Of a DNA stretch of 64,000 nt, positions 12,399 to 62,883 are shown in pieces. How positions within the stretch are numbered: the first letter of the stretch is position 1; the number at the start of each line of letters is the position of its first letter. Under the pieces are notes generated by a model that saw only the letters and a program-made list of their open reading frames with translations, did no database searches and was not told the origin of the DNA. Source of the stretch: Amphiscolops sp. MND2022 (taxonomy: Eukaryota); assembly GCA_964187785.1 (NCBI GenBank), contig OZ076412.1, positions 55,614,001 through 55,678,000 on the forward strand. The letters are read 5' to 3'. Both the position numbers and the translations under genes were made by a program.

Positions 12399-12893
12399 CT
12401 GCTGGAGTATCTTTTTACACGCACTGGAGTCAAGCATGACGACTTAATCCACTTGAGGAAGATCTCGAATTCCGCAACTTCGCAGAATCACTGGCTTGCA
12501 GACCATATCCGTGGCTCTCTTTGAAGGGATCTACGCGCCGCTTCCTCCCACTTCTCTCCCTCTCGCTGTCATTATCAATGAATTGCGCCATGAAGTATCT
12601 GAAAATAGAACTCCATTTTTATTGAAGAACTTCATCCCGGGAGACTTTTGTTGATGCTTTCTGAAAGTATTCGTTTTGGATGCTAACTTTTGAATCAACC
12701 AATCAGAATTCAACACACAAAATTTTCTATGAGCAAGTTTGAACTGCTAATTTTCTGCCACGTTTATTCACATTTTCCCACTTTATTTCAAGAGTCAAGT
12801 TTGTTCTACTCTTCTCATTGAAAAACAACTGACTTTGTCATTATCAAATTTAATTCAATCATTTCTTAAAAGCAACTCTTGAAACGACATTTC

Positions 12894-12912
12894 TGGTGCC
12901 TTGACCCGGAAT
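12894..12912 (+). other. tRNA-His-type primer binding site (TGGTGCCTTGACCCGGAAT) directly after an LTR-like segment ending in ACA
   Basis: Near match to the complement of the tRNA-His 3' end, TGGTGCCGTGACTCGGAT; lies 4 nt after the LTR-like 12591-12889. Confidence 0.6.
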
Positions 12913-15226
12913 CAGTGGAACTACCCCATGAGCTGCGGGAAACAGCTAACGAATGTGAAATCTTGTCAGACGACTACAAAATAACTCTCCAAGAATGATT
13001 TGGAAACCAAACCTGGACATCATATCTTTCAAAACGGACCTACCTGCTGTGACAGTACTCACCAAACGCAGTCTATTGTCAACTACAGCCAAATTGTACG
13101 ACGCAATGGGTTGGCTGCCTCCCATCATCATCGTGTTCAAAATTCTACTTTAGCAATTTCGGTTGACAGGAGTCAAGTTGGGACGAGCTCGTTCTCGAAC
13201 CGATCAAGCATAAGTTTTTACAGTACTTTTCTGAGCTGATAAAGGTGGCTCAAATCACAATGCTGCGTGCAATTGTAAAAAATGCAATTCAAGACTTTCA
13301 ACACCATGTTTTCTGCGATGCTTCAGAGAAAGCATATGCTGCCGTCATCTTTGCTCGTACCACTGATGTCTTTGGAAGTATGAGTTCACATTTGATCACT
13401 TCAAAAACGAAGGTTGCCCCAGTGAAGGTTAACTCAATGCCTCGTCTTGAGCTTTGTGGTGCACACTTAGCTGCAAAATTGCTTGAAGCTACCAAGTCAA
13501 CTCTTCAGATAACTGGTCTAGAACAATCTTTCCACGCATGGACATACTCCACCATCATTCTCCAGTGGTTATCGCAACTCCCTCGAACTTGGACCCCAAT
13601 TGTAGCTAACAGAGTTTCCTACATATAGGAAATTATCAAAAGAGATAGCTGGAATCGTGTTCCAACAAATGACAACCCAGCAGATCTGTCCTCAAGGGGA
13701 CTCTCAGTTGAAGATACCGTTAACTCTCGCCTTTGGTGGTCTGGCCCTGAATGGCTACCACACCAAAAGTGTTATTGGCCTCAACTAGATGTACACTTTT
13801 CATCTCTGTTACCAGAGAAAAATGATCTGCAAGAAACTTCCAAGGCCAAAAACAGAACATCTACTCCTGTAGAAGTTACGACACTCACAAGCAGTCAAAG
13901 ACTCAATTCAAGTTTTCACGTTCTGCCGACTGAAAAATTCAGCAGCTTCAATAAGCTCATCAACGTCGTCAGCAACGTCATACGGTTCATCAATGCGTTG
14001 AGAACAAGAATCGACGGTCATACTCCACAACTAGCAGAAACTGAAATTCGTAGAATTGCAATTGCAAAGATCATTAGACAAGATCAGATACAAACGTTCC
14101 CAGATGAGTACGCAACATTGCAAAGGCATGCTGAATTGACACGATAATCCCCTCTCCTCAACCTGTCACCCTCTCATGACGAAGAACTTGATGTCATTCG
14201 TGTTGGAGGTCGTCTCGCACAATCAAGTTTGCATGAAGACAAAAAGTTTCCCTATCTGATTGCCAAGGATTCACCGCTAAACGAGCTTCTAATTCGTCCT
14301 TATCATGAAAGTTCACTTCATGGGGGAGGCCTATTAACTCTCAATACAATGAGAGAACAATTCTGGCTGGTTAACGGAAGAAAAACGGTAAATAATTTCA
14401 TCAAGAATTGTGTCAAATATTTCCGTTTCAAATCGAAGTTTACTCCTCAACTAATAGCTGACCCACCTAGCGAACGCGTGACCCCAGCTAGGGCGTTTTC
14501 TACCTGCGGAATAGCTTTCGCTGGACCTTTCAATGACAAGGACAAGAAACATCCCAAGATCTATATCGCTGTTTTTATTTGCCTAGTCACAAAAGCCATT
14601 CAATTGGAATTAGTTTCAAGACTATGGAAGCAACTTCATTGGCTAGAAAAGATTTCCTACGAGTTCAAGCACTTCTTAATGAAGAAACCGCTGATGGTAA
14701 ACAACTTCTTACGAGACACTTGACAGGTCAAAGCACTGGATGGGTTACGATACCCCATCGAGCACCACACTTCGGTGGTATATGTGAGGCCGCTGTAAAG
14801 AGCATGAAGGGACATTTGAGACGCATACTCAGACTTCAAACTTTGGAATATGAAGAACTCCTGACAATTCTCCAGCAAATTGAAGCAATCTTAAACTCAA
14901 GGTAACTCTTTCCCATGTCCGATGACCCCAATGACTGCCGAGCTATAACTCCCGCACACTTCATCATTGGAGACTCGCTACTTTCAATATCCAGAGAAGA
15001 CATAGATAAATCTGCTGGACAGAGAATAAAACTCCTTCAACGAATTCAACAAGATTTCTGGAAGTCTTGGCGCAGGGACTACCTTGTGGAATTTCAAATA
15101 CGAAAGAAATGGTTTCGCACTGGACCTTGTATAAACGTGGGCGACCTTCTTCTGGTTGCTGAAGATAACGAAGCCCCACAGGTGTGGAAACTTGCCAGAA
15201 TCTCGGGACTATTTGGAGGAAATGAT

Positions 15227-23026: not shown

Positions 23027-23092
23027 ACTACTACTAGATGCAAATTTTCGAGCGTTTCGTTCTGAATGAACCCGTGCAATTTTAGAATTTTA

Positions 23093-26000
23093 ATGTCGCA
23101 GGATGCTCAGCTTTTCAGCTTACCATTTTTGAAACCGTGGTGGAGAAAAGCGAAGCAGGTTCTACTACGGTTGTTTGAAGCTAATACAGTTGATAGATTA
23201 CGTCGTCGACTGCATATACTAAGTCAATGCGGAATTCCTCATCTCAACAGAGACCCATTTGGCAATCTATGTACGTATTTGGAAGATTCGATCCCTCTTG
23301 CTGATCAAATTCACTTCCTTGAAAAAGTTTTCCCGACTATTCTATACTTGGTCCTCAATTTAGAAGAGCATCCTGAAGAATGGAGCGCCCTTACATGCCT
23401 GATGAGGAATCGAGGTAGCGAAGTGATTGTACGCAGACTTACCATTGCTTCGCTGTTGTCGACATCTTTTCTTTGTCTATTGCCTCAACAGTCACTCTGG
23501 CATCAAGAAATTCCGTACAATTTTGAACCTTTGTATCTAAATCTTCACACTGAGACTGCGCGAGAGAAATTAAAGTGCTTCATCAATTACTTCGATGTTC
23601 TTAGTCAGCAAATCCCCAATAATTCATATCTCGGTGCTGTCAAAATCACCCGACGTGTCCTGCCAGGTTGGTGTGCGTTACGCACAGACTTGCTTGAGGA
23701 CTCCAACAGAAATTTGTCGTAAGTGTACTTTCTCTGATTAAAGACAAAATATATATCTTTATTGTGAAAGAGAAAAAGCAATGTGTTGCAAAGAAGCTTT
23801 TCGATCATTTATGAGATCATCTTCAGTTTATCTAAAAAACAACAAGAGTATACAACATAAAATAAAGATATCTATCGTTAGCCATCCAAAGATTTCTTTT
23901 CAGGTCTTTCAAAGTGTGCAGAAATTCGAAATTGGAAGAATTCCCTAACGATGTTCTAAAGATAGGACAAATTTCCCGGGTCTTGGGACATCATGTATGG
24001 GAGCCTAACTGTACACCGGAGGACGTTTTGGTCTGTAGATCACCAGAAATACTTGGATGTTCATTCCTCTGTGAAGCGTTAGCGGATTCCGAAGCCCTTG
24101 AATTTAGTGGATGTAGTGCATTCTCCCAGACAAAAGGGGTGTCTTCATCTTTCGAGTTTGTTGCCCCAGTGACGCGCCAAACAAACATGAACTACTCACA
24201 TTTATGCGCAATCGATGCAATCAATTTCCAGGTAACTTGATGATCTTTTGTTGTCTCTTTGAAAACCTTACATGCCTATAAACAGTTTTCTTTGGTATAT
24301 AATACTTTATATAACTACAGCAATGTGCAGTTGTATTCATTTTGTTAACGGAAGCTTTTGAACTTTTAGTTTTTTTTCACACATGCTGATCACGACGTCT
24401 TAGAAGTTTGAAATGTTCACCAACAGTTGGCTTCGATCTCTCGTTTGTTGGTGGTGCTCTCAATTTCGTCGGGTTCTATTTTTAGGCAAGTGCTCCTAAT
24501 TTTGTCGGGTTCTATTTTATGAGGCTGTTTTAAGCGATGCAATCCACTGTATCCGTTTGTGTTGAGTTGGTTACACCTTTTGAAGTCTCATGTTGATCAA
24601 TAATCACCGTTTATTGTCAGCGATACATGGATAAGGCTCCATTTGGTTCGTATTTTTGTTGGTTTTACTGTCTTAGTCGAAAAACAGTTTTACGAACTTC
24701 GGCAAGATGCAAGCTTTTGTTTCAGGATCTCTGAAAGAGTAGAGCTTTCAGGAATGTTTGAATTTTTATTTCATGAAACAATGACTCCGCTTCCCCCTTT
24801 GAGCAACAACGAAGACTGACATCTAATATTGCGGGCGAAAACTTTGAAAGGGTACTATGTATTTTATCATGAAAGATATGCACACAGTGGATCCCGGATA
24901 TAAGAAACCCACTATAAAAATTACTCGCTTATAGTTAATTAGTATTCTGGCCACGCCTGCGAATTTAATTCCTTTTTAAACCCGTATATAAGAAACTTCG
25001 TTTTTGCGAACTTGAGGGTGCCCCCTTTTCGGTTTTCGGCACAGAAGTAAAAAATGACATTTTTGAACATGGGTTTCTTGATGCTTCGAAATATTGGACG
25101 TGGTTTTTGAGTTTGATGGGTCTCCCTTCAGGAGCTTCATTTGTGTACCCCTTTGTGTGTTCTCTTTTTCCGCGCTGTAAGTTTGTCTCAAAAATTTCAC
25201 AATAGTATCCCTTCGCATAATCAAAAGCTTTGCATTGTCCCCCGAACGGGTTGTTTACCTTTAATACGATCAGGATTTTTTTCATCCGAAGACAATTATG
25301 CTTAGAATTATTCAAGTGGAGTCGATTCTTCTGTTTTGCTGTAGTCGAGAAATGATTCAAAAGTGGCAATGAATGCATGAAAGTAGAATTACGACATTTT
25401 CTTATTATACTTTCTCTCAACTGAGTAGTAGTTGCAATCGACGTTTCGAGTCCACGCATTTGACCATGCATTTTTTAATGCTTGTTGTTTCGCCTTTTTG
25501 AGACTTTTTCGAAAATTTCATGGACAACTGTCATCCGGCACGGCGTCTTCTTCCATTGACACCAATATCTCCACTGCTTTGCGCCTCACCTTCGGTTGAA
25601 GCGTGATTCTGAAACCAAAAAGGACATGACTAATAATCTTAAGCTGTCAGTGTTATAAGTAGTGGGAACCAAAAATTGCGTTTATTCTTCTGTTTATTGC
25701 GCAATAAAATTGCTCTCAAAAAATTTTAATTGTCATCAAACTTTAATTTTCAAAAGAAAATTGCACTCATTAAAATCACTCATATGCAGCATTAACGTAA
25801 GCAATTACATTTTTCACGTTTTCACCAGCAAAATTTCGGCCATTTGCCAATATATATTTTTTTAATTTTGAGAATGAGCGTTCTATAATCGCATGGGATG
25901 AAGGACAATTCTGAAGAAACACATTGTTTCTGGGTCGCAGTCTTCTGTGGGTTCCACGACCTTCTTCAAATTGGGCATTTTATTCAAACGAGATTTGAGA

Positions 26001-34200: not shown

Positions 34201-37200
34201 GCTGATGTCTCTGTCGGTCAGTGGCCAGTTATCGTCATCACATGTCCCAAACATGCCCAATATACTGTTCCTGGAAAAGAACCTATCGGCAAAATGAAAT
34301 TTTCCTCTCATATCAGGTATGTAACTCAGTTTTCGTATGTTTTTGATGTCCAACACAACATGGATCTTAGCCTGCGATGTGATCATAATCGGAGGACCCC
34401 GATTGAAAACTCATTTTTTGGCTCACGACGCTTATACATACCATTATCATGCTGCGTTAAGGTAACGAAATAAAACGGGAGTTTGAATAGTCAATAATGA
34501 AATCTTGAAAAAATTAACAATTGAAAGTTTTACCAACAGTTTCCTCATTTTAGGGTTCTTCGTCCACTTTTAACTTCGTGTTTCAAAGAGCCAATTTTAA
34601 CCTATCTACGTGCTGGTATTTTTCAGACTTCTGGTATTCTCAATCACAGTCATCAATAGAGTACACGTGGAAATAGCACGAGAGACCAATCCCCATAACC
34701 CCTTCTGGAGAGGAGAAGCAGTCAACACTTACGGACCTCTTTATACTCTCGACTGGAAACCCAAGTCTTTCTCTGAAGGACTCTTCATCATTCGAGTCAT
34801 TGCTACTGTAAGTGTGAATGATGAGATTTTCATCATGGCTTTTCGATAGCATCTTCGAGCAGTCCTTTGATTAAAGGAACCAACCATCCTTCATTTGATC
34901 AATTTTTTTCTTGAAACATTTCATATATGCGACAGTTTACTCTAACTCAAACATGGCAAAATCATTTGAATATGATCAAAAACAATTATTAAGAACACTC
35001 CTATCGATCTCACACTACGGAAAAATAATTGCAGAATTGATCGATTTTTAAAATAATTTTCTCTCCAAAAATTTAAAAGGGCCCTCTGAGCTCGCAAAAC
35101 GCTTTGTCCTTGCCAGAGTCAACAAGCCGGGGGTGGCCCAAGTCGTCACCCCGCTCCAGGTTTAATAATGTAAAGTATTTTAAATATGCAAAAGGACATT
35201 TCATAAACTTTACAGTGCCAAAAAATACCCCAAGGGATACGCATAAGACTCGAAGACCACTTTTTCTTCAACTGGAGACTTTCAAAAAACCAAAAATTGA
35301 GGAAATTTTTCAAAAAATTTTCGAAGAAATTTTTTGATGAAGATTTCCGGTAAGTCGCATAGGTTTTTCAAAAAGCCCGAAGCGTCCCTCCTTTTACAAT
35401 TTTCGGCATTGTGAGATTCTTCAAAATGATTATTTTTCGTCTTAAAATTAGGTTTTCTCAGCACGCTATATATTTTTTTAAGACCGGCGTCCATGTGACT
35501 TTTTTCTTCCTTTCATCAAAGCCCCCTCAATTTTTACTAGAAACGAAACGTTTTGCGAGCATAAAGGACTCCTCGGGGCTTTCGACACTATGCGACTTAC
35601 CGGAGACCTTCATTACACTTGCAATAAGCAAGTGTTATGTGAAAGTGCGGGCGCTTTTTTCCGAGCGACAACTCGTTTCACGCGTCAAGTCGCACAGTTC
35701 ACGCGTTCGTGGTCTAGTGGTAAGATGTTGGCTTTTCAACCTAGAGGTTTCGTGTTCGAGTATTCGAACCCAGAGTATTCCTTAGCAAAAGGTTCTCACT
35801 TTTTTTCGGCACTATGAGACTCCCCCCCTTTCAGCTTTGAGATTTTTTTCGAAAATTTTTAAATGTCGCCGAAGTGTTCTCCCTTTCATTTGTTTGATGT
35901 TTTGCAACAGAACGAATGTTAGAAAATCCCAAAGGGTCCGTCATGTACCGTACGGTCATGAACTTTGATTCATAGCCTCAGAAGAACAAATGATGAATCA
36001 TGCGCTAAACAGGGGGGACGAGAACAAAAGATTCTACAAACTAAATATCATTGACCACTTAATCACATAATTACATTTAAATGATGCTAATTGTAAACTA
36101 AATAGAAACCACGGACACAACCACACCGGGGGTACTACAAGCAAGTCGGTTCTAACCAATTCAATTGAGTTACCATCAAATTGGTTTTCAATGAAATTTC
36201 TAAGTCAGGAACCCAGATTCGCAACAGATTTTTCATCTCGTACAAAAGCCCGAACAACAATTGAAATGGATTCAAAACCCAGGTCTTGGACGTACTGATT
36301 GTACACTCTTTCGGGCTGGTTTGAAGACCAATCTAACAACTATATGACATGGTGACAAGGGTACTCTGACTTTTCAACGACTTGCATCTCAAACCGTTAT
36401 CTAAGAACTTTCAACATGGCTCAATAAGCCCGAGCCCAACAACCTGCAGCTCCTCTCGCAGCTCAGCTGCAACCTTTCATCAATCTACAGAGCTTTTGTG
36501 GCAAAGACACTGAAAACTTCAAACAATTCGAAAGACAACTTCGCAGTTCACTGGGTATAGCAGCAGTCGACGCAGCCCACCACCACCTCTATCTCCAATT
36601 GCATATGAATGGTAATGCGCTTGCATTCTTTGATCAGCTCACGGAAGCAACACGCAATAATTTCGAGAACGCACTGACAGCGCTCAGGAATCGCCACCTT
36701 AACCCCGACAGGGTCGAATCGTATAGATTGCAATTCAATACTCCAAAGAAACAATACACGATTCTCTAACGGAATTACAACGAATTGCTGGCCTTGCATT
36801 CCCAGACATTGATGCACAACCAGCCGCGAATGGCAATCCTGAGGTAGCAGCCGAAGACAGAGCCAACGAAAGAAACCGACGAGTGAGAGAACCATTCAAT
36901 AATGGGCTACCCAACAAATTGAAAAAAGTATCTTTTGACCCTACCAGACTCAACAACTGTTGATGATCTCTGTGAGCGTGCAGCAAGACGTGCAATGATC
37001 GATCAACACTATCCAGAAGATGACGTCGGTAGTGCCTTCAATGAAGTTTCACCCACCCAACTGGAAAGCCTTCTGAATACAATCTCAGATATGCAGAAAA
37101 CACAATCTTCCATGCAAAGAAAACACGAAGAAGAAATCGCTGCTCTGAAGGAGTCAGTCCAGACTCAACAACCACCACATCATCTTTCCAATAACATCAA

Positions 37201-40200
37201 AACTGGGGACGAGGCCACTACCAACCCAGTTTCCAGAATACATACGGACGATCGAACTACCAGATGGGACGCGGCGTCCAATATTCAGGACACAGAGGCA
37301 AACAACCTCGAGGAGGCTTCAATGGTAACAATCAACGCTTCTGGTGTCGCATCTGCGGCAAAGGGGGACATACAGCCTAGTTCTGCTACTATCGAGAACA
37401 ACCACAGAGGGATCAGTAACTCCCATTTGACCGCCAACCAATAAACTGAATGCGCCACCTTAACAATGTAAGTCAAATTCACTACCCAGCTCCAACAGTG
37501 AAAAACTATTCTACGTACCCCTAACTCTTGGAAAATCATCTCAACGCTTTTTGGTAGACACAGGTGCCTTCTCATCTGCTAATACTTCTAAGGTTCTTGA
37601 TACCATCAAAAAAGCTTCACCAAATTCAGTACGAAACGAAGAACTTCCTAGCACCCCTGTTGTAAAAGTGGCTAATGGACATTCAGTAAAAACGCTAGGT
37701 GCAATTGAAATTGATTTTTTACTTGGCAACCAGAATTTTAAAGAAAACTTCCTGCTTTTGCCCTATGTGAATACGCCAATAACGCTTACCTTTTTTCACA
37801 CAAAATAATATCACCATAAATCCCAAGGTATGTGAACTCTCGGTGAAAGATTTTACTTTCCAGTTGAACGAAATAACAGGCAATAATGGTCGAATACGCA
37901 GGATTTTTCGGAAAATTAAATTTGCCCTGCGAACAACTCACAAAATTAACATTAAACCCAGTTCAGAAGAAGTACACAAAGGTGCACTCAACAAATCCTT
38001 AGAATCTGAAAGCGTCGGGATTGTTGAACCCAATACTGGATTTGAAAAACGAACAGGGTTGTGCATTACGAGTTCACTTTCTAGACTACATAGTTCAACC
38101 ACAAGTCTAGATATTTTGAACTGTACACCGAATCATATAACTATACCCAAAAACACAATTGTAGCCCGCTTCAAAATATTGACACCCAAACAAGCCAAAT
38201 ATCTTTACCAAATCGCCCCTGCCCTTATTGCCTCTGACCCTTCTAAATCTATAAATGAGCTTGTAACCACTGAACCTACAACCGACCACATTCGTTGTGA
38301 CGATTTTTGGTTTCCCACCCCGGAAAATTGTCATGACCCGTCCAAGCTCACCCCCAGGCACGTAAAATCTATGACCGCTTATGTTCACTCAAGGAGGCGG
38401 AAAAAATGAATCCCCTGAAGGATGATACCAGCCGCAACAACTTTTTATCCAATTTTAAATGGTCAAAGTCAGTTCTGTCTAACGAATACCGCCAAACAAT
38501 CGAAGAAGTTTTATTAGAATACAATGACATTTTTGCTAGACACGAATTTGATATAGGAGGAAACGATACTTTCACAGTAAAATTGACTCCTGAACACCAT
38601 AATCCGATATATACACAGTCATCCTACGCCAAATCACCTACGAGAAGAAATTTTATCCAATCTTGCAGTAATGCACTATTATGGGTTGATCACTACTTTG
38701 CTTTATTCGAAGTATTCTAGTCCTCTTCGCGCATCGAAAACCTTCAGGTAAACTACGTTTACTTGTCGACTTACGGAAAATCAATCACCTAATCAGACAT
38801 GATTATGATAGGCACATTTTCCCAATAAGTACTCTTGCTGACGCAGGATCTCATCTGGCTGGAAAAAAATTGTTTGCAAAGCTAGATTGCAGCCATGTGT
38901 ATCAAGCACTCAAAATGTCTGACCCTCTGTCTGTACAACAATTGTCTTTCAACTTTGCGTCCCGCACCTTCACGTACCTGCGTATGGCTCAAGGTTTAGG
39001 TAGGTCAATGAGCGCCTTTAGCTCTTTAATGTGAAAGTATTTTGTTTCGTGTATTGCAAACGACCAATGCTTTCAGTATGTCGACGATCTAGGTACCGGT
39101 GCCAAAACTTGACGAACTTAACACTAATTTGCGCAGCATCTTTGATTGCTTTCGAGCATCAGCGTTGAAGCTCACGATGCATAAATGCGAATTCGGACTC
39201 TCAAATTTCGTTTCTAGGGAGCACAATTACTTCGAATGGAACTTCACCGAGCAAAGAAAAAGACAATTTTTTAGCACATCTAAAGCCACCAAAAACTACG
39301 AAATAAATCAAAAGATTGATCTGATTTTTTTCAATTTTTTCGCGCTTACCTTCCAAACCTCAGTGACAACCTTATACTGTTTTACAATCTCGTGCGATCC
39401 AACTCGCCAATAGTTCTCACCGCCGAACATCAAGAATCTTTCAAAAAGCTCTGCAAAAGCTTGACCAATGCTTGTGCGATGTCTTTACGATTACCTAAAC
39501 CGGATTTGTAATACGTTGTTCTCACAGATGCAAGCTATCACTCGGCAGGTTACGTATTGATGGTAGAAGACTATGTCTCAAATTCGGACAACTCACAAAC
39601 TAAATGATATGCTCCAGTCTCATTCGGCTCCAAAATTTTTAATCCAACACAACTGAAACTCTCAATCTATGCAAAGGAATTCCTCGCAGTTCATTTTGCT
39701 TTCGATGCTTTCGCCCACATTCTCTGGGAAGCAACTAAGCCTATTTCAGTACTCACTGACAACAGAAGTCTAACAAGATTCTTCCAAGCTATAACAATAC
39801 CTACACCATTATGGAAAGCTGTTGATCATGTTTTAAATTTCCGGTTTCTCCTTGGCCATGTACCTGGGAAAGCAAATATAGCCGCGGACTACCTTTCCAG
39901 AGTGAATATTGATCCTGAACAGAAACTAGTTTCAAAAATCTCGACATCCATGCCTTGCCGACAAGTAGAATATGGCTCCCACAATGCCCGACAATAGTCT
40001 AACTGCCTTGCAAAACTACGATGACGAGGACGACTATGACGAACAAGAAGTGGTCTTGGAATACTTCAAGGATTGTACACCGACAATCTCAGCGCTTCAG
40101 AAAGCCAATCCACTAGACACTTATGACCTACTCGGCAAGTGACCTTCAGAAAGCCAATCCACTAGACACTCATGACCTACAATCAGCACTTTTGAATATG

Positions 40201-43200
40201 CGCACAGAACAAAAACGAGAACCTGATTTGAGCGAGGTCCTTCGATGGTTTGAAACACAGCAACTACCAGACCTGAAATATTCCAGCACAGAACTACAGA
40301 AATACGCGAAACAATTTCCAAGATTGGTGCTACGCGATGGTATTTTTTTATGCACATTTTATGGACTCTACTGCAAATTTTATGGTCATACATGTAACGT
40401 TCTACATCACCAATTGGTAGTACCAAAACAACTACGTACAAAACTACTGTATAGAATCCACAACAGCAAATTCGGTGGCCATTTGGGAAAACAAGCAACC
40501 ATTTCTGAATTCAGAAAACTTTTATTTTCCTTACTTTTCCAAAATTTTACTTGAGTATATTCGGAATTGTTCTTCATGCTTGCAACTCAAACCAGCCAAG
40601 AAAAACTCAATCACTCCTCCAGTGCAGCCCCTAGCCTCCGAACATTGCTTTCCCGGAGAACTGCTACAAATAGACATAGTTGGGGAAATGCATCCTCCAG
40701 GAGGATATACTCACATTCTTACAGCTATTGATGTTTTTAGCCGATACTTATTTGCAATGCGCAAGCAGAACAAGTTGCGCAAGCTCTTTTCAAGCTTTTC
40801 ATGCATCATAGCTACCTTCCATCGAAAATACTGTGCGATCTTGGAACGGTCTTCACATCAGCTATGATGCGACAACTGTGCTTTGATAGAAATACAACTT
40901 CAGTATGCCACAGTGAAACATCCACAAACTATTAGAGTTCTAGAACGAAGTCACTGATCTCTCAAAAGAATTTTGAGCCTTAACGAAGATTCAGAATTCA
41001 AAGATTGGTATAATAATGTGGACATTGCAACTTTTGTCCACAATACGAGTAATCACACTTTCATCGGTTGTTCTCCAACCCTTCTTTTCCACGGGCGACA
41101 ACCCCTGAACCCCATTGACCTTCGATTCAATAATACCCACGTGGAAAAACCAACTCCAACCTTGGACTTCATCATTTATACACACTATAAAATGGAGACA
41201 ATATTCGTAAATGCTCACGAGAAAAACTTGCAAGCTTACCACAAGTATCGAGAAGTCTTCGACCGAAAAGCCAGAGCTCTCCCTCTAAAGCTGCACAGCT
41301 ATTGTCTACTGTTGAATCCAAAATTAATCTCACAAAATGATTCACTAACGAAATCAAATACTAAATGGCTTCCATTATACCGAGTCGAAAGTGATCACAC
41401 ATGGAAACTATATTATTCGCAAAGTAAATACCAATAACACACAATGTGTTCATAGGGTCAGCATCATTGGCTGAACCTGCTCTCTTTGACAAAGCTCTAA
41501 CCGACTTGGTAGATGATTCACCCCCGATCATAGGTGTTCCAAGCACCAATGATGCTATAATATCATTCGGATTACGAACGGCTAGAACAACAACTGCACA
41601 TCCAGTGGCTCCCCAGGCCATCCCTCTGCCTCAACCTCCAGGAAAAACGCCAACACTAGAAACACAAAATACCGAAACACAATTTCCACCGAATGATAAA
41701 CAACGAACTGGTGCTCACTTGGATTCAAGAGGTTTCCCCATATCACAAGATGAAACTTTCTACGTAGAAAGGACTTTACCTCAATCTGGAACGCAACCAA
41801 CTCAGTCTTCACAAACAATTGACACCAGAGATTACCTCACGGAAGAACGACAAGCATCATCGCAAAACAATTTCTTCAGTCAATGCCGCAGCGTATCACA
41901 ATCACACTCTCCCAGCACAACTGATGCGAGAAAAAAGAAAGCTCTTTTACAGCCCACACAAGACGCCCGTCTAGGGACCAATAGGGCCTATGAATTACGC
42001 AGGCAAATAAACCTCACACGATTCTACCAATCTCAACCCCAATCCCAACGCCAGCGCGATAATAATTCACGTTAACTTTCTAACATTTACTTTCATACGT
42101 ATACAATTTCATAGCTCTTTCAAATGAAAATATTTAGTTTCCAAAATTTCATGCTCAGATCATACTCTTTTCGGTCAATGCTTTCGACAGGTCACATCCT
42201 GTACCTCCCAACCAATATCCGCTCTAAAACTCTTCATCAACAAACTGACTATTGTCAAATATTGACTGAACTCACCATATCCTGTTCACCTTTCGGAACA
42301 ACCCTTGCCTCTTGAACAATCCATTCTTGACTCTTAAATTCAACGTCAATCATTATTCGAGCACATCACATCCTGTTCACCTTTGAATATATTGATTTGA
42401 CCGCTAAAGACAATCACACCACTCATCAGCGCCTCGAAAACCAAATTCGACATCCACTCCGAACATTCACTTTGCCTAATTGAGCTGGTCTCTTTCTCTC
42501 TCATTGAACACATAAACAAGCCCGTCGACAGCCCAATTGTTTCAACTTGTTTTACCAGGTTTGCAACTTTTAATTGCTCTTTTTCATTCCAGCAATTGCG
42601 AGTCTACCAATACTTCCACACATAATGAGATTATTTTCAACTACCATAGTAAAATCCTTCTTGCTAAATCGTTCGAATCAGTTCAACTTGTCTTACCCTA
42701 TCCTCAATTTGATGCAACTTTTGAGGAATATATTCAAAGCATCGCTAACAAAATAGATCAACTATGGAATCACCCGAACTATGGATGTGAACTCAACTAC
42801 AACAATATAACATCACTCAATTTCACAGCTAATTGGATACATCACGAAGTGGTGGCTGAACCTAGCCGTGTCTTATCTGACCTACACCGCTTCAAGTCAG
42901 AAGTTACACATCTCTTTCCGGATACGCTACCGCCAGTACATCGGAATAAAAGAGCAATCCCTCTCGTACTGGCTGCAGGAGCTGCCACTGGCATCTTTGG
43001 TTTAGGTTTTGGACTCAAGGATAAAATCTCCTGCACACTAGGGCGCATCTTTGACGGATGCAACAAAATTGCACAAGAAAACAGACACGCGATAGTGGAA
43101 ACGATCAATCATGTGAACTTTGTAAAATCAGCTTGGGTGGAAGTCCAGAACGCAACGAACGAGAAGCTTTTCATCGGAACTGAACTACGTGACCTCCGAG

Positions 43201-46200
43201 AAACCCAAATAAAATCATAAAAATACAACGCACCAACGCTGCCACTCTTCAATCACAGTTTTCCCTCCTCGAAGAAAGTATCAATTATATGCGAAACTGA
43301 CCAATTTCTATACATAAGAGAAGAAGCTAATCGCCATTTGAATTTTTTGAATTCGGTGCTTTCAGTAATATATAACTTGCGAAGCTATCGCACTAATCTC
43401 TACTCTTTTCGGATGGCAATCTTAGGATCCTCGGCAGCAATTAAAGAAGGCTTTCTACCTTTGTCATTGGTCCCGCGCGACGTGTTAAGTGATATTTTGC
43501 TGCAAGTTCTGCTGCAAACACATTCGAAAATCGGACGAAACCTTTTATCTATTCCGATTGAAAACGTGATGTCATATTATGAAACAGAACTAGTATCTAA
43601 AGTCATTTCAACAGATTTCGGACTACTTTTCACCTTATGTATTCCTTTTTCATCAGAATCAACCGCACAGACGTATGCCACGCTATTCCATTACCCATGC
43701 CACCAGACGAATCATTGACAGCTACAGTATGGGACCTAGGAACGGAATACCTTGCTGTCACCCAAACCGGTCATGAGGCTGCCCTCTTGACACTGTTCGA
43801 CTTGGGACAATGCATAGGCGCCCTGAGCTACTCAATTTGTTTTTCATCTTTCCCCATGGAACGTTCCATGGATTCTTGTTTAGCTACTCTCTTTTATAAG
43901 GATACTCTTGCAGCGCTAGAAGTATGTCAAATCCAAACAATCACTTTACCTGTGAAAGAAAAGGCACAATACCTTGTCGTTGGAAGATGGCTCATCTTGA
44001 GCCCCACCTCTGATTTCATCTTTACAGAATCTTATTCTTACCTCCAACACGCCGCCCTTTCTGTCAAATACCGCCCCGGATGCAAAGTCTATATCATCAT
44101 AATGAAGTGTGGTTTCGAGTTGCAAGGTCCCAACGTCCACCTACGATCAGATTGGTCATCATGTGCAGGCATGGAACCGGTCCAGTTGGATATACGCTTG
44201 CCTGACCCCGTTGCCTTTCTCTTTAACAAACTGCCACCTCTGGATGACCTCACACAGATACAGGACATCGACACGGCACGAGTCAAACTGATCACTGACG
44301 TACAAACAAAACTGATACAGGTACCAGAACTTAAACGGCGACATCTCGATACTTTGGCTCAGATTGCCGAACCCATTATTTCTAAAATGCCGACCTTACC
44401 GCCAACTTTGGAAGCAAAATTCAGTTACACTGTTAGTTGGACACCATATCTATGCTTCGGAACAGCCATTTTCGTTTTGTCAACAACAATACATTGTCTG
44501 ATGTCATATTCACTACACCGAATACTAAAATTCCATCGAAGATTTCCATTTCGGATGACTCTAAACAAGCGTTCTATCAAAGCTATACCAGTAACTCTGG
44601 TCGAAGATGAAGACTCTGAATACTTGAGAACACACCCCGACCACCTCATTTTCAAAAAAAGTTTCCTTCTGACTCGAGAGTTCATCACGGCCAAAATAGA
44701 TACTTTACCCCCTACTTTTTCTCTCAATACACACAACTCTTCATTGTACCCCCGCTTAAACAAGGAGTCGCCTATTTAACTGCTACCAAAATACAAAAAA
44801 AACGAACAAACTAGAAACTAAACTCTTTCTTTCTGACACCAATATAACAAAGGGTGTACTATTCGAATATAACTAACCAAACAAATAATACCTCTACATA
44901 ATCATAACACTGGTAAATATACTCAACTGAAACAGCTGTATAATCCAAAAGAAAAAAAACAGTAAGTTCAGCTCACATGCTCCACTCATTCTAAACTTGC
45001 CACGAGTGGGAATCGAGAATAACTTGGGCCTCTTATAGCCCAACCACAAATAGGCGACGACGAGAAGCACAAGCCAAGCATACAAACGGGGTGCTGATGA
45101 CACATTACCCTCACACTTGAAGGAGCCAACAGCTACTTTCACATCATCCTCCATCAGAACCGGCTTGCCGCCACAACACGCCCACGATAGGATGATACCA
45201 CCAAATGACTCCTCCCTCTGGACGACACATGGACCTGCGATGACACAAACACAAATCATCAGCATCACAACAGGTTTCAATACACAATTTCTCATCATGC
45301 TCATTTCAAGACAACTGAAAATGTTCAAAATGTTTACTCGATTCCTAAATATTTCCTAACTTGGCCAGTTAGAGAAATCTTTACTTCACCATCTTCGAGT
45401 CACGGAGCTCAGCAACATCCCAAAAAAATGTATCATCAAATACTTTATTGACTCATAAATCAAAAACAAAATATGAAAACATTAATTGCATCAAAATAGC
45501 TCATCATATCAATTCAATGTCCAAAACTAATTTCAAATTGATATTGTTCTTCATCGAATATGCCTGCCTCCACCTTAACTGATATCATCCATCATCCTAG
45601 TGGAAAACAAACAATCGCCCTCTAAAAAAAAAACAAAAAAACAACTATGTCGAGAAAAGATACTACTTGACGGGGGCTAACTCCAATCAATGTTCTTTCA
45701 GGCTCTCCAAAAAAATAAAAACCTCATCGAAAGAGAAATGTCTTATTGTCTCTTCACAAAAAAAAATATTTTTTCACTCCATTGGACCGTCTTATAATCT
45801 AATATTTGCGTACAATGCCTTGAATTTCTAACCACTTAATGGGGCTCTTACATAGCTCAGTAACAATTCCACAGCTTTTGCAGTGTTTTAACACCCTCTT
45901 CCCGACTGTGCAGTCATTAAATTCAGTTTTGGAACCTATTTTCTAACCTTGTGCCTGTCAGTTTTGGGGCATTGTTCAATCTACTGTACAAAAGCCCGCA
46001 ACAACAATCAACTGTATTACGATCATTCATACCCCTCCAACTTCGCACATTGTCATTAATTGCTTTAACACTACCTTCAGACACAAGGTGAACATAGAAA
46101 TCATTATACGCGCTACGACACCACCACCACAATTCGCTCCTAAGATGCAGTTTAAATTTTGTGTACAAAAGCCCTGATGAAATACATTCTTTATGACCCC

Positions 46201-49200
46201 ACCTTCCTTGAACCCCGACCAAAATGCTTAATGCATTGTGCTACTATCCACTTCTGAGAACCCTAAACTTCCATCGCTTTTTATATTTAACTACCTTCCA
46301 ATTCATTTCAGAGCTATAAGTAACATATTTTATTCAAGTTGTCATCTGTTCTATTATGATATTTCGGAACATTTATATTACAAAATAATGATGGTACTCA
46401 CTCAATTGGTTTTATTGCGACGCTGCAGCCTCCCAAACGACTTCTTCCTCTTCTTCCTGCCTACTCGTCCATCACTCCCTTCTCTCCTCCCAGATGGCAC
46501 CATCCACTCCGTTGTTCGGCATAGGTTGGCAGGCTGAGACGGCGGTATCAATCTTCGAAGTCAATAACGCTGCCCCTTTAGTTGGCTCATTCATCTCCTT
46601 ATCCACTTCAGGTATTCCTGACACTGTCAACACCAGATGTCCCACGTTCTTTTGAAACACTACAGTATCCCCTGGCCTTTGCACCACAAGACGAAATCCA
46701 GTCACGTCATTACGCTAAAAAGGACACATCTACATAAAAAGAAGACCCACACCATAATCAATACCCAAATCTTTCACTCACCTCAAATTAATCACTGAGC
46801 TCCTTCATCGTCCATCTTCTTCTGATGAAGAAACGGGTCGCTGTTGCACTACCAGTTAAGAAGGCCCAGAGTTTTACTCCACGTATCAAAGTTGCCATGA
46901 CTGGCTTCTCCGGATACCCGTCCTCATGGGGACCTCGGAAGCTGGGCCCCTCGGCTAACAAAATGAGCAGATCATCTAGTTGCCCTGTGGTGAACCCCCG
47001 TGTCCAAAAATGCTTTTGAGAGTTTGAGAGCCTGCCATGCTCCCTGACATAAACCCCCTCCCAGATTCGTCCACCAAACTCAGACCAGACTTTGTGATTC
47101 TCCGGTTCACATCCAAAGCGATCGCCCATCTCATCGAGCCTCCTGGCAGCCTATCTCAGCCTCTAAAACATGCCACGCACACTATTTGTTTTATATTACA
47201 CAAGTCAAAATATTACCACCAAATATAAATGACTACATGGAGTTCTTCCTCTTTGTAGCCGGCAAGCGGTTCTCACCTCACATGCCATCTCAACAGCCTC
47301 CTCGGGAATCCTCTCTGCAACCACGTCAATCCGAGACACCATCACCTCCCACAACTTCTTGGCATCATCATTAGCAGAACTCATTATATCTGAAAAGGTT
47401 ACACGATGACAACATGCACATGCAACAACGACCAACATCATACAGCTACAATCGACAATTTTTTCCCATAATAGCGGGTAGTTTCATGTACCGTACGGTC
47501 ATGAACTTCGATTCATAGCCTCAGAAGAACAAATGATGAATCATGCGCTAAGCAGGAGGGACGAGAACAAAAGATTCTACAAACTAAATATCATTTCATT
47601 GACCTTTTAATCACATAATTACATTTAAATGATGCTAATTGTAAACTAAATAGAAACTACGGACACAACCACACCGGGGCTACTACAAGCAAGTCGGTTC
47701 TAACCTATTCAATTGAGTTACCATCAAATTGGTTTTCGATGAAATTTCTAAGTCAGGAACCCAGATTCGCAACACACATTTTTCATCTCGTACAAAAGCC
47801 TGAACAATTGAAATGGATTCAAAACCCAGGACTTGGACGTACTGCTTGTACACTCTTTCGGGCTGGTTTTAAGACCAATCTAACAACTATATGACAGTCC
47901 CTTTTTCCAGATTTTTCGGTACAATGAGACTGTAAAATTTTCTCATTTTGTTTTTTCTCGAAAATTTTTCGAAATTCTCCAAACGGTCCCCCTTCAATTT
48001 TTTGAAATTTTGCAACAGAATGGATGTTTAAAAATCTCTAAGAGCCTCCTTTTACAGTTTTCGGCATTGTGAGATTTTTCAAAAGGAAATATTTTTGTCT
48101 TAAAATTAGGTTTCTCAGGGCCCAGCACTCTATATCCGATTTTCGTTTTTTAAAGACCGGTGTTTTTTCTATGCGACTGTTTTAAATTTGTTTTCATTGA
48201 AGCCCCCCTCAATTTTAGAAGAAACGAAACGTTTTGCGAGCGTAAAGGACTCCTCAAGGTTTTCGGCACTACGCGACTTACCTGAGACCATCGAAAAATA
48301 TTTCGAAATTTTTTTCTTCTCAAATTTCTGTTTTTTTTAAACGTTTTCCGTTGAGAAAGATGGATTTTTTGCTGTTTCCAGTTGGGGAAGAATGTTTTTT
48401 GAGACTTGTGTGTATCCCTTCAGGTATTTTTTGGCGTTGTAAAATTGATCAATTGTTAACATTATTGTCCTTTTACCCTTGGTTGTCCGTATGATGCTGC
48501 TTATTTAGTTTTCTTTTGAAAAGTTCGCAACTTTCTCTGCAACTGTTTGCGAAGCACGGCTCGATTCATCCAAAAGCACGGTGTTTAAAGGTTCGATTCA
48601 TGAATCACATGACTACATACTTTTCTCTTCTCAACAGGATGATTTTGGAAATCAGCGTACTGTAGTACAACCCTTCTCCATGGACGGAAGTGCTCCGTCT
48701 TTGCCACCGGTGGCGTCTTTCATCATTGCCTCAAATCTCACAAAAGGCGCCAAGGTTCTCTTCTGGACAGCCCATGCTTGTTTCATCACTTGTCTGCTGC
48801 TCCTCAGGTTCCGATTGGCCCTTATGAGAAGTAAGTTATTTAGCATAGTAAAATTGTGAGTGGGTGATTACAAAACATTCTCACTTTCTCTTTTAAGGAA
48901 TGAACGTCTTTCGGGTGCCTTTTCTGGGGTATCTTCTGGAGAATTTGACGCTTTACACAAGCTTTGACCAGTTGTTCAAACCTCTTGTTTTCTGGCAACT
49001 CTGGGCTGCTTATGGTAATTATTATTTTTAATGGAATCAATTTTTGTTGAATTAAATAGACTATTGAAGTTTCTATTTAACCCTGAATAGCATGTTCGAT
49101 TTTGCGAATTTTCCAAAATTTTGGAATTTTTTTCAACCGTTAATATCCCCCATATCTCCCAACTACTCATACGGAGAAATGAATTATAGCGCGTTTGAAA

Positions 49201-55108: not shown

Positions 55109-57347
55109 ATGGTCAAGAAAGTTTTCGTCACTGTCGGAACGACTCTGTTCGAGAAACTGATCAGCGTGCTAGAAGATGAGCAACTTATCAAGGTTTTATC
55201 CAGTAGGGGTTACTCTTGTATAGTTGTACAACATGGAAAAGGTCGCGCTCCTGAGATATCCCCTCAAGTCCTCCATAAATACAATAGTGAGTCAATTCAA
55301 GTTGAAGCTAACATCATCAGGAATCCCCAAATGTTTTGAATTGGTAGCAATTTGTCATTTTTTCTGTAATCTGTAAAAGTCAGAACAAAACGAGAACGTC
55401 TCAAGTCGGCACCCCGCTTAAGGCTCATATGGCAAAAAGCAGTCTATTCATGCTCAGGGAATTTTTGAAAATTTCTCATATATACTCAGAATGGTTTCTA
55501 GGAAGTTCTCCGCCATACCAATTCGAAGGGGGCCGTGTTGCCTCGGAAAACGCTTTTCTTTGACTAAAAAGATTGAAAAACAAAATTGTGGGAAAAATTC
55601 GAAAATTTATCAGAAAACAGTGGCAAAAGCGTCTTTTCCGAAGTTGCAAAAATTAGACCTCGTAGTGGGCTCAAACCCACCATCTCCTGCTTGGGAATCA
55701 CTAGACCAGGTGACTGTCAAGCGGCGTGAGCAAACTGCTAAAAGGTAGACCATTTAGTGTGAAGTCTCGTCTGACAAAATCGTTAGTTTGAAAATTGAAC
55801 TTTGAATTCAATTACACTTGATTAGAGCTTTACCTAAAACTTAAACCACGTAAATCGTACAACTGAAATACCAAATATGTACAAAACATTGATTTCTTCG
55901 AAATGTGGTCCAATCCGAAGTTGGTTTAAAATCTCTAAAATTGTTCCATTGAAGCAGTTTTTCCAGATTCTGTCATTTCCAATATAATCTTTTGTCCCAG
56001 CTTCGTTTTTCCGTACGATTATTATTTGATATTTCTGCGTTTAAATTTTAAACTTTGAAATTTTCGGGTCTTTAGTACGGCCACATGCAAAAGCGGCCAT
56101 TATCAATCTACCTTGACACGCATACGCTCCCGTTTTTTTTGAAATTTTATCTGCATGAGCTGGAGTATTTCTTGACAAAATGTTGTTACGTTTGTTTTCT
56201 AAAAGCATCTAGTCTGACTCTCCGCACCGAGAGGGACACTTTAAATGATATGAAGCGAACGAAGATTTGCGTATCGTTCTTTGAGAGCCTCGCCTGCATT
56301 CAAACATTATTCAAGAAGTCGTTACCGCTTACTATTCAAGGAATAAATTTTATGATCCGAGATTTGAATGCTTTCAGTTAAAATTACTACGCCGAAATTC
56401 AAAAATTCGAATGTGTTTTTGGGTAACATGTGGGGATTTACTTCCGGAAGTTTTAATGATTTTGTTCCGAAAACCTATGTGAAAATCATAGATGATTTCC
56501 TTTCTGAAATTTCTTTGCAAATTTTTGCATTGCAGAAAAGCCACTGAGCCCCGAAAAGGCTGATTTTTTGAAGTTAGCAAAAAACATGTATAGCAGTGGA
56601 ATTTTTAAATTTACACCTTTTTTTTAATTTCGCAGCAGCTTGTCTAGCTCTCTTGACAGCTACAGGAGCTACTTCTCTCATGACAAAGCTCTCTATATCA
56701 TGACGTTGACAAAGTTATATATAGTTGATAACAAAGATCTATTCAATTTTTTTTAAATGAAGTTAAGTAAGGCACATGTTTGGTTCTCAAGGGCGCAAAC
56801 TAAGAAGAGTAGAAATACTCATTTTGCGTCCTATATCTATTTGATGAATTTTTTCTTTGATTCTTCGTGTACTTTTAAATATTCAATTGAATAAAATGTT
56901 CCAAAGCGAACAGCGAACGGGTATAGCCTAAGTAATCGTTCGCTGAGAGCTTCGTCTGTCTCTAGTCCAAGATTTGTATGCTTCCGATCAAAATTACTAA
57001 GTTTGCATTTTTTCGCAGTGATGTTGTATTCATACGATTACAAGTTGTCAATTTCGGAAGACATCGAATCAGCTGACCTTGTGATCTCCCACGCTGGAGC
57101 TGGCACTTGCATAGAAGTACTCAATGCTCACAAACCCCTGATCGTGGTTGTCAATGAAAGTCTCATGCATAATCACCAAACTGAATTAGCCAATCAGCTG
57201 ACAGATGACAGCCATTGTCTGAACTGTATCCCTGAAACGTTGCTGGAAACCTTTTTGTCTTTGGACCAATCTAAATTGAAAGCTTTACCACCTGCGAAAC
57301 CAGAGTTGTTCGTCCAATGTCTAGATCGTTTTTTCGGGTTCGCTTGA
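55109..57347 (+). CDS. ALG13: UDP-N-acetylglucosamine transferase catalytic subunit ALG13 (short form, 168 aa); exons 55109-55286 and 57019-57347
   Basis: VFVTVGTTLF, ADLVISHAGAGTCIEVL..KPLIVVVNESLMHNHQTELA; phase-1 junction A|gtgagt..cgcag|TG. Confidence 0.93.
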
Positions 57348-60021: not shown

Positions 60022-62883
60022 ATGGTTCGCGTAGCTGACACTGATGCTGCTTTCGACGCAATTCTGAAAGAGGCAGCTGACAGGCTGGTAGTTGCCGACT
60101 TCTTCGCAGTTTGGTGTGAGCCCTGTCGAAGAATAGCCCCTGCTTTCAATGCCTTTGCCACCAAGTACACAAATGCTGTTTTTGCCAAAGTGGACGTCGA
60201 TAAATGTCAAGTGAGTTGAAAAATCTACACCATTCATTCACATCGTTGCATTTTTCTTTTTCGCCTCATTTATTGAAAAGATAAACCTTCGACGACCATA
60301 TTGGAAATAATTCACAGGTCATACAGTTTTGACTCCAATTCGTGCGGTTTTCAGCCAATAGGTAAGTAATGGTTTCGAGACCCACTTAGGCCTTTTTTCT
60401 ATAGGAAAAATCCTATTTTCAAAAAAATCTAACAAGTGAATCCCAAATATTAGTCAATTTTGGGAACCAACTTTTGAACTTTTTTATAAGCGAACTTTCT
60501 AATAAGCGCGTTTAATAAGAAACATTATCATTGAATCTCTTGAATCCATAAATCAACCTACTTTTTACATATTTACAAAATTAGTTAAGCTGAGTTTGGT
60601 TTAGCGATTTGTATACATTTGACGGCGGACTGTCACCGAAACCGTGTTCTGCCCGTGAATATCCGGTGCCATAAAATGACTCGCTTTTGCAAAACAGTTT
60701 CTTGGTTTTCAGTCAGAATGTCCCAGTTTGGTTTTCACAGTCTTGTTTTTGAATCACTTGTTAAATAGTGTATGGTAGATCGAATGAAAATGTTTTTCTT
60801 CATGTAGGCCATTGCCGGGCGCTATGGAGTGACATCTATGCCTACATTTCTTTTCTTCAAAAACGGGCAGCAGACTGACAAAGTTAGCGGAGCGGACCCC
60901 AACGCTCTAGAGGCAACTATCAAGAAGCACTACACGGAAACATCAGACCCTCTTCTGAGGGACGCGCCCCCTGGCATGCAATGTATCAACAGTTTAATCA
61001 ACAAATCCGAGTGTGAGTGTTTGAACGAGGACTCTGCTCACCCGGGTATCAACTGTCTGTCTACCGACTCAGCGGCTGCTACTAGAAGCGACTGCGACGA
61101 ACAGGTTTGTTGCGAGTTATATTGTCTGCTAAATTGAATTTCGGTGTATTGATTCGTATCTCAGTCTGTTCCTCGTTCTAGCTCCTGTTCAGAATTGGGT
61201 TCCAGCAGCCAATCAAGTTGCACTCTATCCGCATTGATGTCTCTCAGTCTGGAGGTCAGTTCCCACACTTTGAACAGAGTCCTTCAAATTTTTAAGGATC
61301 AACTTTTATTATTCATGAAAACTATTTCAAGTACAGGAAATTCCTAAAATCATAACTGTTAATAATATTAATAATACTTGATATATTTGTTTACTCTGAT
61401 TGACATGAGCATTTTTGCAGATCTTAGTGAAATTCGAGCGGCTCGCAGCACTGGGCTTGTATTTACAACAGCAGATCGTGGTTTTGTTGCATAAGGTCTT
61501 GTTGTGAATGGGCATAGATAGGGTTGCCGGATCTCGGTTTTCTGGGTCAAAGTCTTTCGAGAAAATTGAATTTTGCTAAAAATGCTAAAAAGCTAAATTT
61601 AGAAAAATTTAACCAGTTGTTCGCTAGAAAAACCCATTTCTCTCAACGTTAGGAGGTCAATTTGCTAATGCGTTTGCCCTGCAAACCAAACACGGTACCA
61701 ACAAATTGTAAAATGAAGACTGTGCTAAAGAATATGGGCTACTGGCAAAACAAATCATAAGTTGAAAAAAGGTAGGCTGCTTTGAAGTATCATTTGGTTA
61801 TTTGGGGTTAATGTTGGGCAAATAAATTTGTTTTGTTTTTCAATTGATACTGAGTTGATTATATCGAATCTTTTGTGTTGAATATATCGAATTCAAAACT
61901 TTTGTGTTGAAGGAATTGATGAAGCGCCTCGGAATTTGGTTCTGTATGTAAACATTGGAGGCTCGCAGGACTTCGACAGCATAGAATCGTGCACGATGGC
62001 CCAAGAACTGACGTTGACCAAGGAAGACATCTTGGCTGAAAAACCAATTGAGTTGAAATTTGTCAAATTTCAGAACGTCAATTCATTGACTGTAAGTTCA
62101 TGTCATTCACTTTGTAATCACAATTGTAGTTCATTTTAAGCTACATTAAGCTGTAATGTTTTGTCTCATTTATTGAGTGAACCACCTATATGAAGGGCTG
62201 TTCCAATTTTTTTAAACAAGACTAACTGATGCCAATACCATGCAGCAATTTCCATTTCACTCCCTCTAAGAGCCATGTTTGCCCTGGTGGTCACTTGAGA
62301 GGAGGATTTTGATATCGCTTATTTTTCGCTTATCGCTAAACCGCTAATTTTAATGTCGCTATTCCGCTATTAAATGTTTGACTTCAAGTATGTTTTTAAA
62401 TTAGGTGTTATCTCAGATTTTTTTGGAAAGAACAAAATGCTGGAATTTTTTTATACTGTGCGGGTGTTATAGGAGTGAAAGTTGAAATTTTTCAAAATTT
62501 ATTTTGTAACTGTATACTCGGAGGAAATTTTGATATAACTTTTTATTTTATGTTAATTTAGGTTTTGTGTAATATCCCTGAACTTCTAATATCACAATTT
62601 CAAATGCATGGAACTTTTCTGCCAAGTTGTATGTATGGTTGCTTCAGATTTTTGTGAAAAGCAATTTCGGTGGTGGAGACGTGACTTCCCTGAAAAACCT
62701 CGCGCTATACGGTGTACCTGTGAACCAAACAAATATGGGCGAATTCAAGCGGGTTAGTTGAAATTCGATAGTTTTGGATTCCAATCTTGCGATGCTCTTT
62801 TGCAGTTGATAAATACAGGGAAGCCCATCATACGCGGTATGTTTTCTCTGAATATGGGCAGAGAGCTCAGTGATTTGAATTAA
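60022..62883 (+). CDS. TXNL1: Thioredoxin-like protein 1 (Trx + PITH domain); exons 60022-60210, 60808-61104, 61182-61254, 61913-62091, 62648-62752, probable last exon from 62806
   Basis: LVVADFFAVWCEPCRRIAPAF, MPTFLFFKNG, CECLNE..SDCDEQ|LLFRIGFQQPIKLHSI, ELKFVKFQNVNSLT|IFVKSNFGG..TNMGEFKR. Splice phases are consistent; the last exon and stop are uncertain. Confidence 0.92.

Follow-up and report, generated by a model that had tools for sequence, protein, structure and literature searches.

A broken F-type envelope gene and a conserved antisense JmjC gene in a decayed Ty3/gypsy element of a likely acoel host

What kind of envelope gene lies at 42537-44779 of a 64,000-nucleotide stretch of the Amphiscolops sp. 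MND2022 assembly (contig OZ076412.1, positions 55,614,001 to 55,678,000; hereafter the window), and what else does the element around it encode? A sequence-only reading of the window had taken this gene for an F-type envelope (env) placed after an integrase and, if the host were an acoel or another non-insect invertebrate, for an env acquisition outside the errantiviruses. We found a broken env gene within a decayed Ty3/gypsy long terminal repeat (LTR) element spanning 35940-47896. The 2.7 kb from env to the 3' LTR, overlooked in the earlier reading, hold two antisense genes, one for a JmjC protein and one for a small membrane protein, which we refer to together as the antisense cassette. On the evidence below we consider it likely that the element, probably of an acoel, encoded a class I F-type Env together with a conserved JmjC protein that would serve to undo silencing.

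The env frame, on the plus strand, begins with a hydrophobic signal-like stretch at 42537 and ends with a stop codon at 44777-44779. A furin-type site and fusion peptide occupy 42942-43010, with RNKR at 42942-42953 and the peptide AIPLVLAAGAATGIFGLGF at 42954-43010, and a transmembrane (TM) segment was placed at about 44444-44515 from the sequence and from the hydropathy peak of a sister copy. Every motif named in the earlier reading, including the Cys-rich region and the position after integrase (remnants matching Pfam rve and Integrase_H2C2 lie upstream), was found in its place, and the claimed absence of an in-frame ATG was borne out. When translated in three frames and compared by tblastn with a natural sister, the window gene proved not to be one open reading frame (ORF): the frame changes near 43195, 43298 and 43665-43685, and the heptad region lies partly in another frame. 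The pieces are 60-61% identical to a sister ORF of 749 amino acids (aa), with a ratio of nonsynonymous to synonymous differences per site (pN/pS) of 0.28 against that sister.

A genome search with the env piece returned 744 candidates, 144 of which were scored, and 73 of these 144 proved to lie in stop-free env frames of at least 745 aa, showing the ORF to be conserved in sister elements. All 24 aligned relatives have an RxxR just ahead of the hydrophobic fusion peptide. Given this conservation, the identity to the sister and the pN/pS against it, the env motifs of the window go beyond chance. Codon comparison also gave a dN/dS of 0.08 between two near copies, and by this measure env is under purifying selection. 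Both LTRs were found in four of ten sampled elements (96.6-100% identical) and a partial pair in a fifth; since the four pairs are so similar, the family is young in part. It is also wide, with 2,949 relatives at E 0.001 when the family profile is run against a 50%-identity library. Trees of pol and env from elements of this genome (11 and 12 rows, respectively) agree except for two elements, which group with the window's side in pol and with the other side in env; this suggests one exchange of the element's 3' part.

The class of the protein was approached through an AlphaFold2 monomer model of a natural sister, the window copy being broken. Foldseek searches of the PDB with this model gave only paramyxovirus and pneumovirus F proteins as top matches (best E 7e-7), and BFVD gave an abalone herpesvirus protein, chu-like glycoproteins and baculovirus F (E 1e-17 to 3e-20). 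The VIA comparison with post-fusion Nipah F gave Z 8.8 and a root-mean-square deviation (rmsd) of 5.1 over 285 aligned residues. ESM features of env lie at 0.94-0.96 to the Baculo_F and Fusion_gly clusters, and at 0.96 to clusters with 12-23% Baculo_F carriers. Profile searches were divided: Pfam gave a direct match to Baculo_F or Fusion_gly in none of the 24 family members, and the window pieces likewise matched no fusion family, but one of 18 distant relatives drawn in by the family profile, found at E 1e-87, passed the Baculo_F cut-off. Among the PDB entries, phmmer with one sister env found no match, and the env family profile found only a weak one, the 'fusion protein' 9w4d (E 0.002).

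Some of these results speak against so definite a class: beside the missing direct Pfam matches, the sister model has a predicted local distance difference test (pLDDT) score of 70 and a predicted TM-score (pTM) of 0.55, the TM-scores of its Foldseek matches are 0.2-0.4, and a VIA Z near 8 is the background level stated for that tool. The model, BFVD, VIA, the ESM features and the distant Baculo_F relative nevertheless agree, and with the sequence-only reading we predict that Env is a class I F-type fusion protein. In its place after pol, and in having a signal peptide followed by a furin site, a fusion peptide and a TM segment, it agrees with the env of F-type errantiviruses in the wide sense, and the sister monomer model has, at modest scores, the head and stalk of a paramyxovirus F. 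An insect host and a direct Pfam match to Baculo_F or Gypsy (0 of 24), as in errantiviruses in the narrow, insect sense, are both lacking. As a separate observation, the best viral fold match of the L002 env model is A0A145VUZ2, an uncharacterised abalone herpesvirus protein of 801 aa (E 2.8e-20); by this model comparison, a herpesvirus of molluscs may encode an F-like protein.

The missing ATG leads to the matter of how env begins. The earlier reading had pointed to a CAG just upstream of 42537 as a sign of a spliced subgenomic mRNA; the CAG is present at 42529-42531, but it has no pyrimidine tract, and a better acceptor-like site, a pyrimidine tract with CAG in phase 1, lies at 42556-42558 (plus strand) inside the signal-like stretch. 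In 20 of 25 uninterrupted env frames, the closest subfamily included, a Met lies directly ahead of the signal peptide. The remaining five share the position of a pyrimidine-AG acceptor-like site, 35-36 nucleotides (nt) upstream of the same anchor; three of these show a sharp border at the site, with divergent DNA upstream and conserved coding DNA downstream. Chance sites are common: an automatic scan returned numerous sites in other phases and passed over four of those seen by eye, and the acceptor sites are therefore a lead only. No close sister of the window env 5' end was found in a DNA search of the genome, the best matches being 69-76% identical. The missing ATG of the window copy, whose own subfamily has no close env sister, may reflect decay or a spliced start; the latter is plausible, and the env mRNA would be subgenomic, arising from a splice or from an internal promoter, in a way that likely differs by subfamily. 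In Oikopleura Tor, env mRNA is described as spliced from the 5' LTR or as arising from an internal promoter (PMC4402516). In subfamilies that carry the cassette before env (L053 near 122-665; L059 near 8654-8802), the starts of the small membrane gene and env lie head to head, about 150-550 bp apart, an arrangement that suggests a shared bidirectional internal promoter.

The JmjC gene, on the minus strand, probably has three exons. The frame holding the candidate first exon (47208-47483) adjoins the 3' LTR and was placed on a weak basis, having no profile score in the window copy and 2.2-2.7 bits in two sisters. The middle exon (46782-47150) encodes the H-x-D motif and the lysine that binds 2-oxoglutarate (2OG), with a premature stop in the window copy. 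The last exon (46402-46714) encodes QxPG...H and a basic tail, the latter in a shifted frame in the window copy. Between these two lies a predicted GT-AG intron of 67 nt (46715-46781, minus strand), the second of the gene, which sits at the same codon position in sister subfamilies: it is GT-AG at one codon position in three subfamilies, while the intron sequence itself is divergent. Scored on a profile built from 17 single-ORF mobile relatives, the middle window exon reached 35.6 bits (best of 20 shuffles 2.4) and the last 17.9 bits (best 3.5).

Conservation of this gene extends well beyond the window. A JmjC exon lies downstream of env on the opposite strand, at a distance of 1.2-5.0 kb, at 25 of the 27 env loci of at least 42% identity; other subfamilies have an intronless version, antisense between pol and env. 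The gene is retained across subfamilies whose reverse transcriptase (RT) and RNase H (RH) regions are 54-71% identical. Both histidines and the lysine are invariant in all 19 aligned JmjC proteins, and a basic tail resembling a nuclear localization signal (NLS) is present in most mobile members. The middle exon has pN/pS 0.42-0.46 against the nearest sisters; for the gene, the nearest group gives 0.28-0.48 and comparison with a farther group 0.61-0.81, with one interval up to 1.1, all rough ratios because synonymous sites are saturated in most pairs. Third codon positions are the most variable. The small membrane gene has pN/pS 0.57-0.64 against its sisters, and at the codon level purifying selection acts on both antisense genes.

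Alignment, profile and model together support the double-stranded beta-helix, the H-x-D/E...H triad and the 2OG lysine of a JmjC oxygenase; these comparisons firmly fix the fold as JmjC but not the subfamily within it. Searched against the PDB, the JmjC profile matched KDM7A and PHF8 best (E 8e-12) and JMJD6 lower (E 3e-7), and returned no JMJD5, FIH or TYW5 at E 0.01. VIA comparison of the JmjC model gave PHF2 (Z 14.2, rmsd 4.0, 218 aligned) and KDM2A (Z 14.0). A repressive histone methyl-lysine is the substrate that we would name first, with a confidence slightly short of even.

The strongest alternative keeps an ordinary F-type env and makes the JmjC protein a hydroxylase or non-catalytic binder of the JMJD5, FIH or TYW5 kind, acting on a host protein, tRNA or RNA. 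We regard it as possible, though on the doubtful side, and a group of observations here tells against the demethylase. In VIA the hydroxylases score nearly as well as KDM2/KDM7, within about 1-2 units (FIH Z 13.3, JMJD5 Z 13.1, TYW5 Z 12.4), and TYW5 is Foldseek's first match to the model, which is that of an intronless relative from another subfamily (pLDDT 75) and not of the window's gene. The protein is small, and a Pfam scan of the single-ORF relatives and the exons found no PHD or CXXC reader domain. The alignment that matched KDM7 included two JmjC rows from outside LTR elements, one of them already KDM7-like, and may be pulled toward KDM7; a single relative alone matches PHF2 only at E 8e-4. 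Moreover, three of the ten sampled elements have a different antisense gene in the place of JmjC, which is hence dispensable for the wider family. What favors a demethylase over a hydroxylase is the ranking in the sequence profile and the basic, NLS-like tail. PHF8 erases repressive marks. Even so, loss of PHF8 activates retrotransposons in mammalian cells according to one report (PMC10349869), and because of this KDM7 kinship does not settle the direction of an anti-silencing role.

The mechanism that we propose has two arms. By analogy with known F proteins, from which we infer its fusion activity, Env would enter the endoplasmic reticulum (ER) and be cut by furin, exposing the fusion peptide; its heptad helices would then refold and fuse the particle with a new cell. 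Intact elements would in this way move between cells through furin-activated fusion. On the other strand, a promoter at the 3' LTR would drive antisense transcription, and the RNA, once spliced, would encode an Fe(II)/2OG oxygenase of the nucleus. Because the gene is antisense and the genomic RNA is the other strand, its introns can survive retrotransposition. With its basic tail, the JmjC product would go to the nucleus and remove repressive methyl marks, which would likely help the element to escape chromatin silencing. The small membrane protein may be another accessory factor that works beside Env, most likely on the cell surface or within the ER, a suggestion that we make with reserve.

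The origin of env admits a second explanation, that of the earlier reading, in which the F gene was captured independently of errantiviruses from a virus of marine invertebrates. The absence of a direct Baculo_F match and the abalone herpesvirus protein as best BFVD match (E 2.8e-20) are in its favor, as are the several origins of env-carrying elements described by Chary and Hayashi (eLife 2026, PMC13524379). The same source, however, places non-insect F-type elements among its 'ancient errantiviruses', with deep co-divergence of env and pol, and the breadth of the env family likewise counts against this view; we hold independent capture to be unlikely. Since F-type env genes in non-insect Ty3/gypsy elements are already published there, the claim of an acquisition 'outside errantiviruses' is not supported.

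Far less probable is that the antisense frames are no working genes but arise as a by-product of antisense RNA with a regulatory role, or are carried along passively: the weakly supported first JmjC exon and the saturated synonymous sites would fit such a view, whereas the invariant catalytic residues, the variable third codon positions, the conserved intron position and retention of the gene across distant subfamilies do not. Least probable of all, the ORF might encode a non-fusing membrane glycoprotein or a host-domesticated env, as the modest fold scores would allow, but the RxxR and hydrophobic peptide are present in all 24 relatives, three independent methods indicate F proteins, and the window env is not domesticated because the copy is broken and flanked by LTRs.

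The second gene of the cassette is a small minus-strand ORF at 44894-45295, with a signal-like start, a C..CC..C motif, a TM segment and basic residues. Ten frames from nine sister elements and the window were aligned. Pfam assigned the protein to no family, and ESM gave only sub-threshold leads (coronavirus ORF7a, 0.81).

The alternative antisense gene, which has several exons, belongs to other env subfamilies and is placed there between pol and env (L053:1516-2838, L057:1122-2378, L051:5926-7129, L148-L155). A search with it gave 291 candidates, 150 of which were scored, and it has a conserved GG-x-C-[FW] motif followed later by H-C-E-P. These motifs are reminiscent of OTU proteases, but neither Pfam nor a PDB profile search returned any match.

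Related JmjC genes were also found outside the Ty3/gypsy elements. In BEL/Pao elements one stands at each end, some 7 kb from the other and in antisense to pol, and these ORFs probably lie inside the LTRs. Such pairs are many in the genome, examples being L083:1280-2158 with 8415-9221 and L084:1083-1961 with 8160-9047. A multi-copy KDM7-like JmjC exon (L109-L127) occurs as frames of 207-213 aa in dozens of near-identical copies that pass the Pfam cut-off; no pol or env was found within the 3.3 kb examined around it. A further JmjC exon stands beside other frames in L100 (3-2843 and 4634-5083), which we take to resemble a tyrosine recombinase, suggesting one more JmjC carrier element.

The structure of the element itself is that of Ty3/gypsy (Metaviridae), with an LTR pair, a primer binding site (PBS), a polypurine tract, a target-site duplication, the order protease (PR)-RT-RH-integrase (IN) and a Ty3-related RT. 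All its parts other than the cassette are on the plus strand. The 5' LTR (35940-36349) is about 410 bp long and ends in TGACA; a short purine-rich tract lies before the 3' LTR (47483-47896), and the GTCC after this LTR is a repeat of the 5' flank. The two LTRs differ by 15 substitutions in 407 aligned columns (3.7% divergence). The target-site duplication is imperfect in the window copy and measures 5 bp in three sisters. At the PBS (36350-36361) the first 8 nt are complementary to the 3' end of a genomic tRNA with CCA added, a match that reaches 9-10 nt in sister elements; the tRNA is read as Leu(CAA), the isotype being taken from the anticodon arm. At G000:C8:35659080-35661461 (L128), six or more tRNA genes with introns, read as Leu(CAA) and with a 3' end matching the family PBS, stand in a tandem cluster; these were detected with Rfam, while ARAGORN gave none there. 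A broken gag remnant (36416-37446) was recognized by tblastn against a sister gag (48-56% identity), and the pol remnant (37329-42075), in many frame pieces in the order PR-RT-RH-IN, by Pfam and tblastn. The PDB matches of the RT are the foamy virus and Ty3 enzymes (E 1e-19 to 1e-21). The window copy itself is dead.

The element is inserted in a dispersed host repeat. The host identity on which the earlier reading had made its claim conditional was examined with the ALG13 exon of the window, whose closest named protein is from Convolutriloba macropyga (63%, E 4e-42; next named protein E 2e-29) and which, in a 19-row tree that included 18 of the 120 listed matches, is joined to Convolutriloba with support of 99/98. 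The host is thus likely an acoel, a conclusion drawn from this one gene, which is a point to be set against the overall reading. The exon flanking the element downstream is TMEM62-like at a Pfam E of 0.001, below the cut-off, and we take the upstream flanking exon to be TMEM62-like as well. Host exons lie at 23066-23722, 56895-57347 and 60808-61137, comprising PARG (Pfam E 4e-18), ALG13 and a third frame, presumably thioredoxin-like. Elsewhere in the window, 5401-14950 resembles a decayed BEL/Pao element and contains two tandem copies of a 3.09-kb segment (6234-9326 and 9325-12398, 98.6% identical); at 8602-9111 on the minus strand, a frame ending in 'EPGCTVYFP..FLHSV' resembles the JmjC motif of locus L088. 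An open frame of 854 aa at 18295-20859 (minus strand) has the endonuclease and RT features of a LINE-type element.

Env-bearing invertebrate elements are usually treated as 'simple' elements of three genes. The env elements of this genome carry conserved accessory genes, one of them for a chromatin-type enzyme, and if the JmjC protein does demethylate histones, an animal retroelement would be encoding its own eraser of silencing marks, in a group used in studies of stem cells and regeneration. Env alone adds a phylum, Xenacoelomorpha, to the published survey, a modest gain; the cassette matters more. Tentatively, and with less than even confidence, these elements may be viewed as complex retroviruses of acoels: F-enveloped Ty3/gypsy elements with a swappable antisense cassette, transcribed and spliced from the 3' LTR side as is the antisense gene of human T-cell leukemia virus (HTLV), for a histone demethylase that would erase host silencing marks and for a small surface protein, the demethylase module being traded with BEL/Pao in a mobilome-wide arms race of counter-silencing.

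How, then, does the element compare with known systems? With KDM2/KDM7 proteins (PHF8, KDM7A, PHF2, KDM2A) the modeled JmjC protein shares the fold, the metal triad and the 2OG lysine, and it differs in being about 290 aa long, without a reader domain, at 12-15% structural identity, mobile and multi-copy. An orchid Ty3/gypsy element is said, by the title of a paper (PMC9289625), to have an AlkB-type domain acting as an m6A RNA demethylase, a 2OG oxygenase of another family than JmjC. A literature search, which did not extend to subscription papers or Repbase, found no report of a retrotransposon-borne JmjC or of acoel env elements. The survey of Chary and Hayashi covers about 1,500 env-carrying Ty3/gypsy elements (1,513 rows in a supplement sheet), among them F-type elements of annelids, tunicates, cnidarians and others, and it names them 'ancient errantiviruses' (PMC13524379). 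The present element has in common with these the gag-pol-env Ty3/gypsy plan, an F-type ectodomain with furin site and fusion peptide, a non-insect host, multiple copies and a Leu-type PBS, which is present among them too. Xenacoelomorpha lie outside that survey, acoel terms being absent from its text and seven supplements, and with respect to it only the host phylum is new; 'antisense' and 'JmjC' are absent from its main text (PMC13524379). Oikopleura Tor (PMC4402516) and the rotifer TelKA (PMC5408684) are likewise non-insect LTR elements with env. The env of TelKA resembles paramyxovirus F, and different classes of rotifer retroelements have extra ORFs in common, but these encode a DEDDy exonuclease, a GDSL esterase or a dUTPase, and 'jumonji', 'demethylase' and 'intron' are absent from that paper (PMC5408684). 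Antisense ORFs, some with nuclear products, lie between the coding part and the 3' LTR in the plant Ty3/gypsy elements Grande (gene23), RIRE2 and Retand, and HTLV has an antisense promoter in its 3' LTR (PMC7264820). According to that review the plant ORFs are without clear similarity to known proteins, whereas the present element joins a recognizable enzyme to an F-type env. What is new here is this combination of an F-type env with a swappable antisense cassette of a JmjC gene and a small membrane-protein gene.

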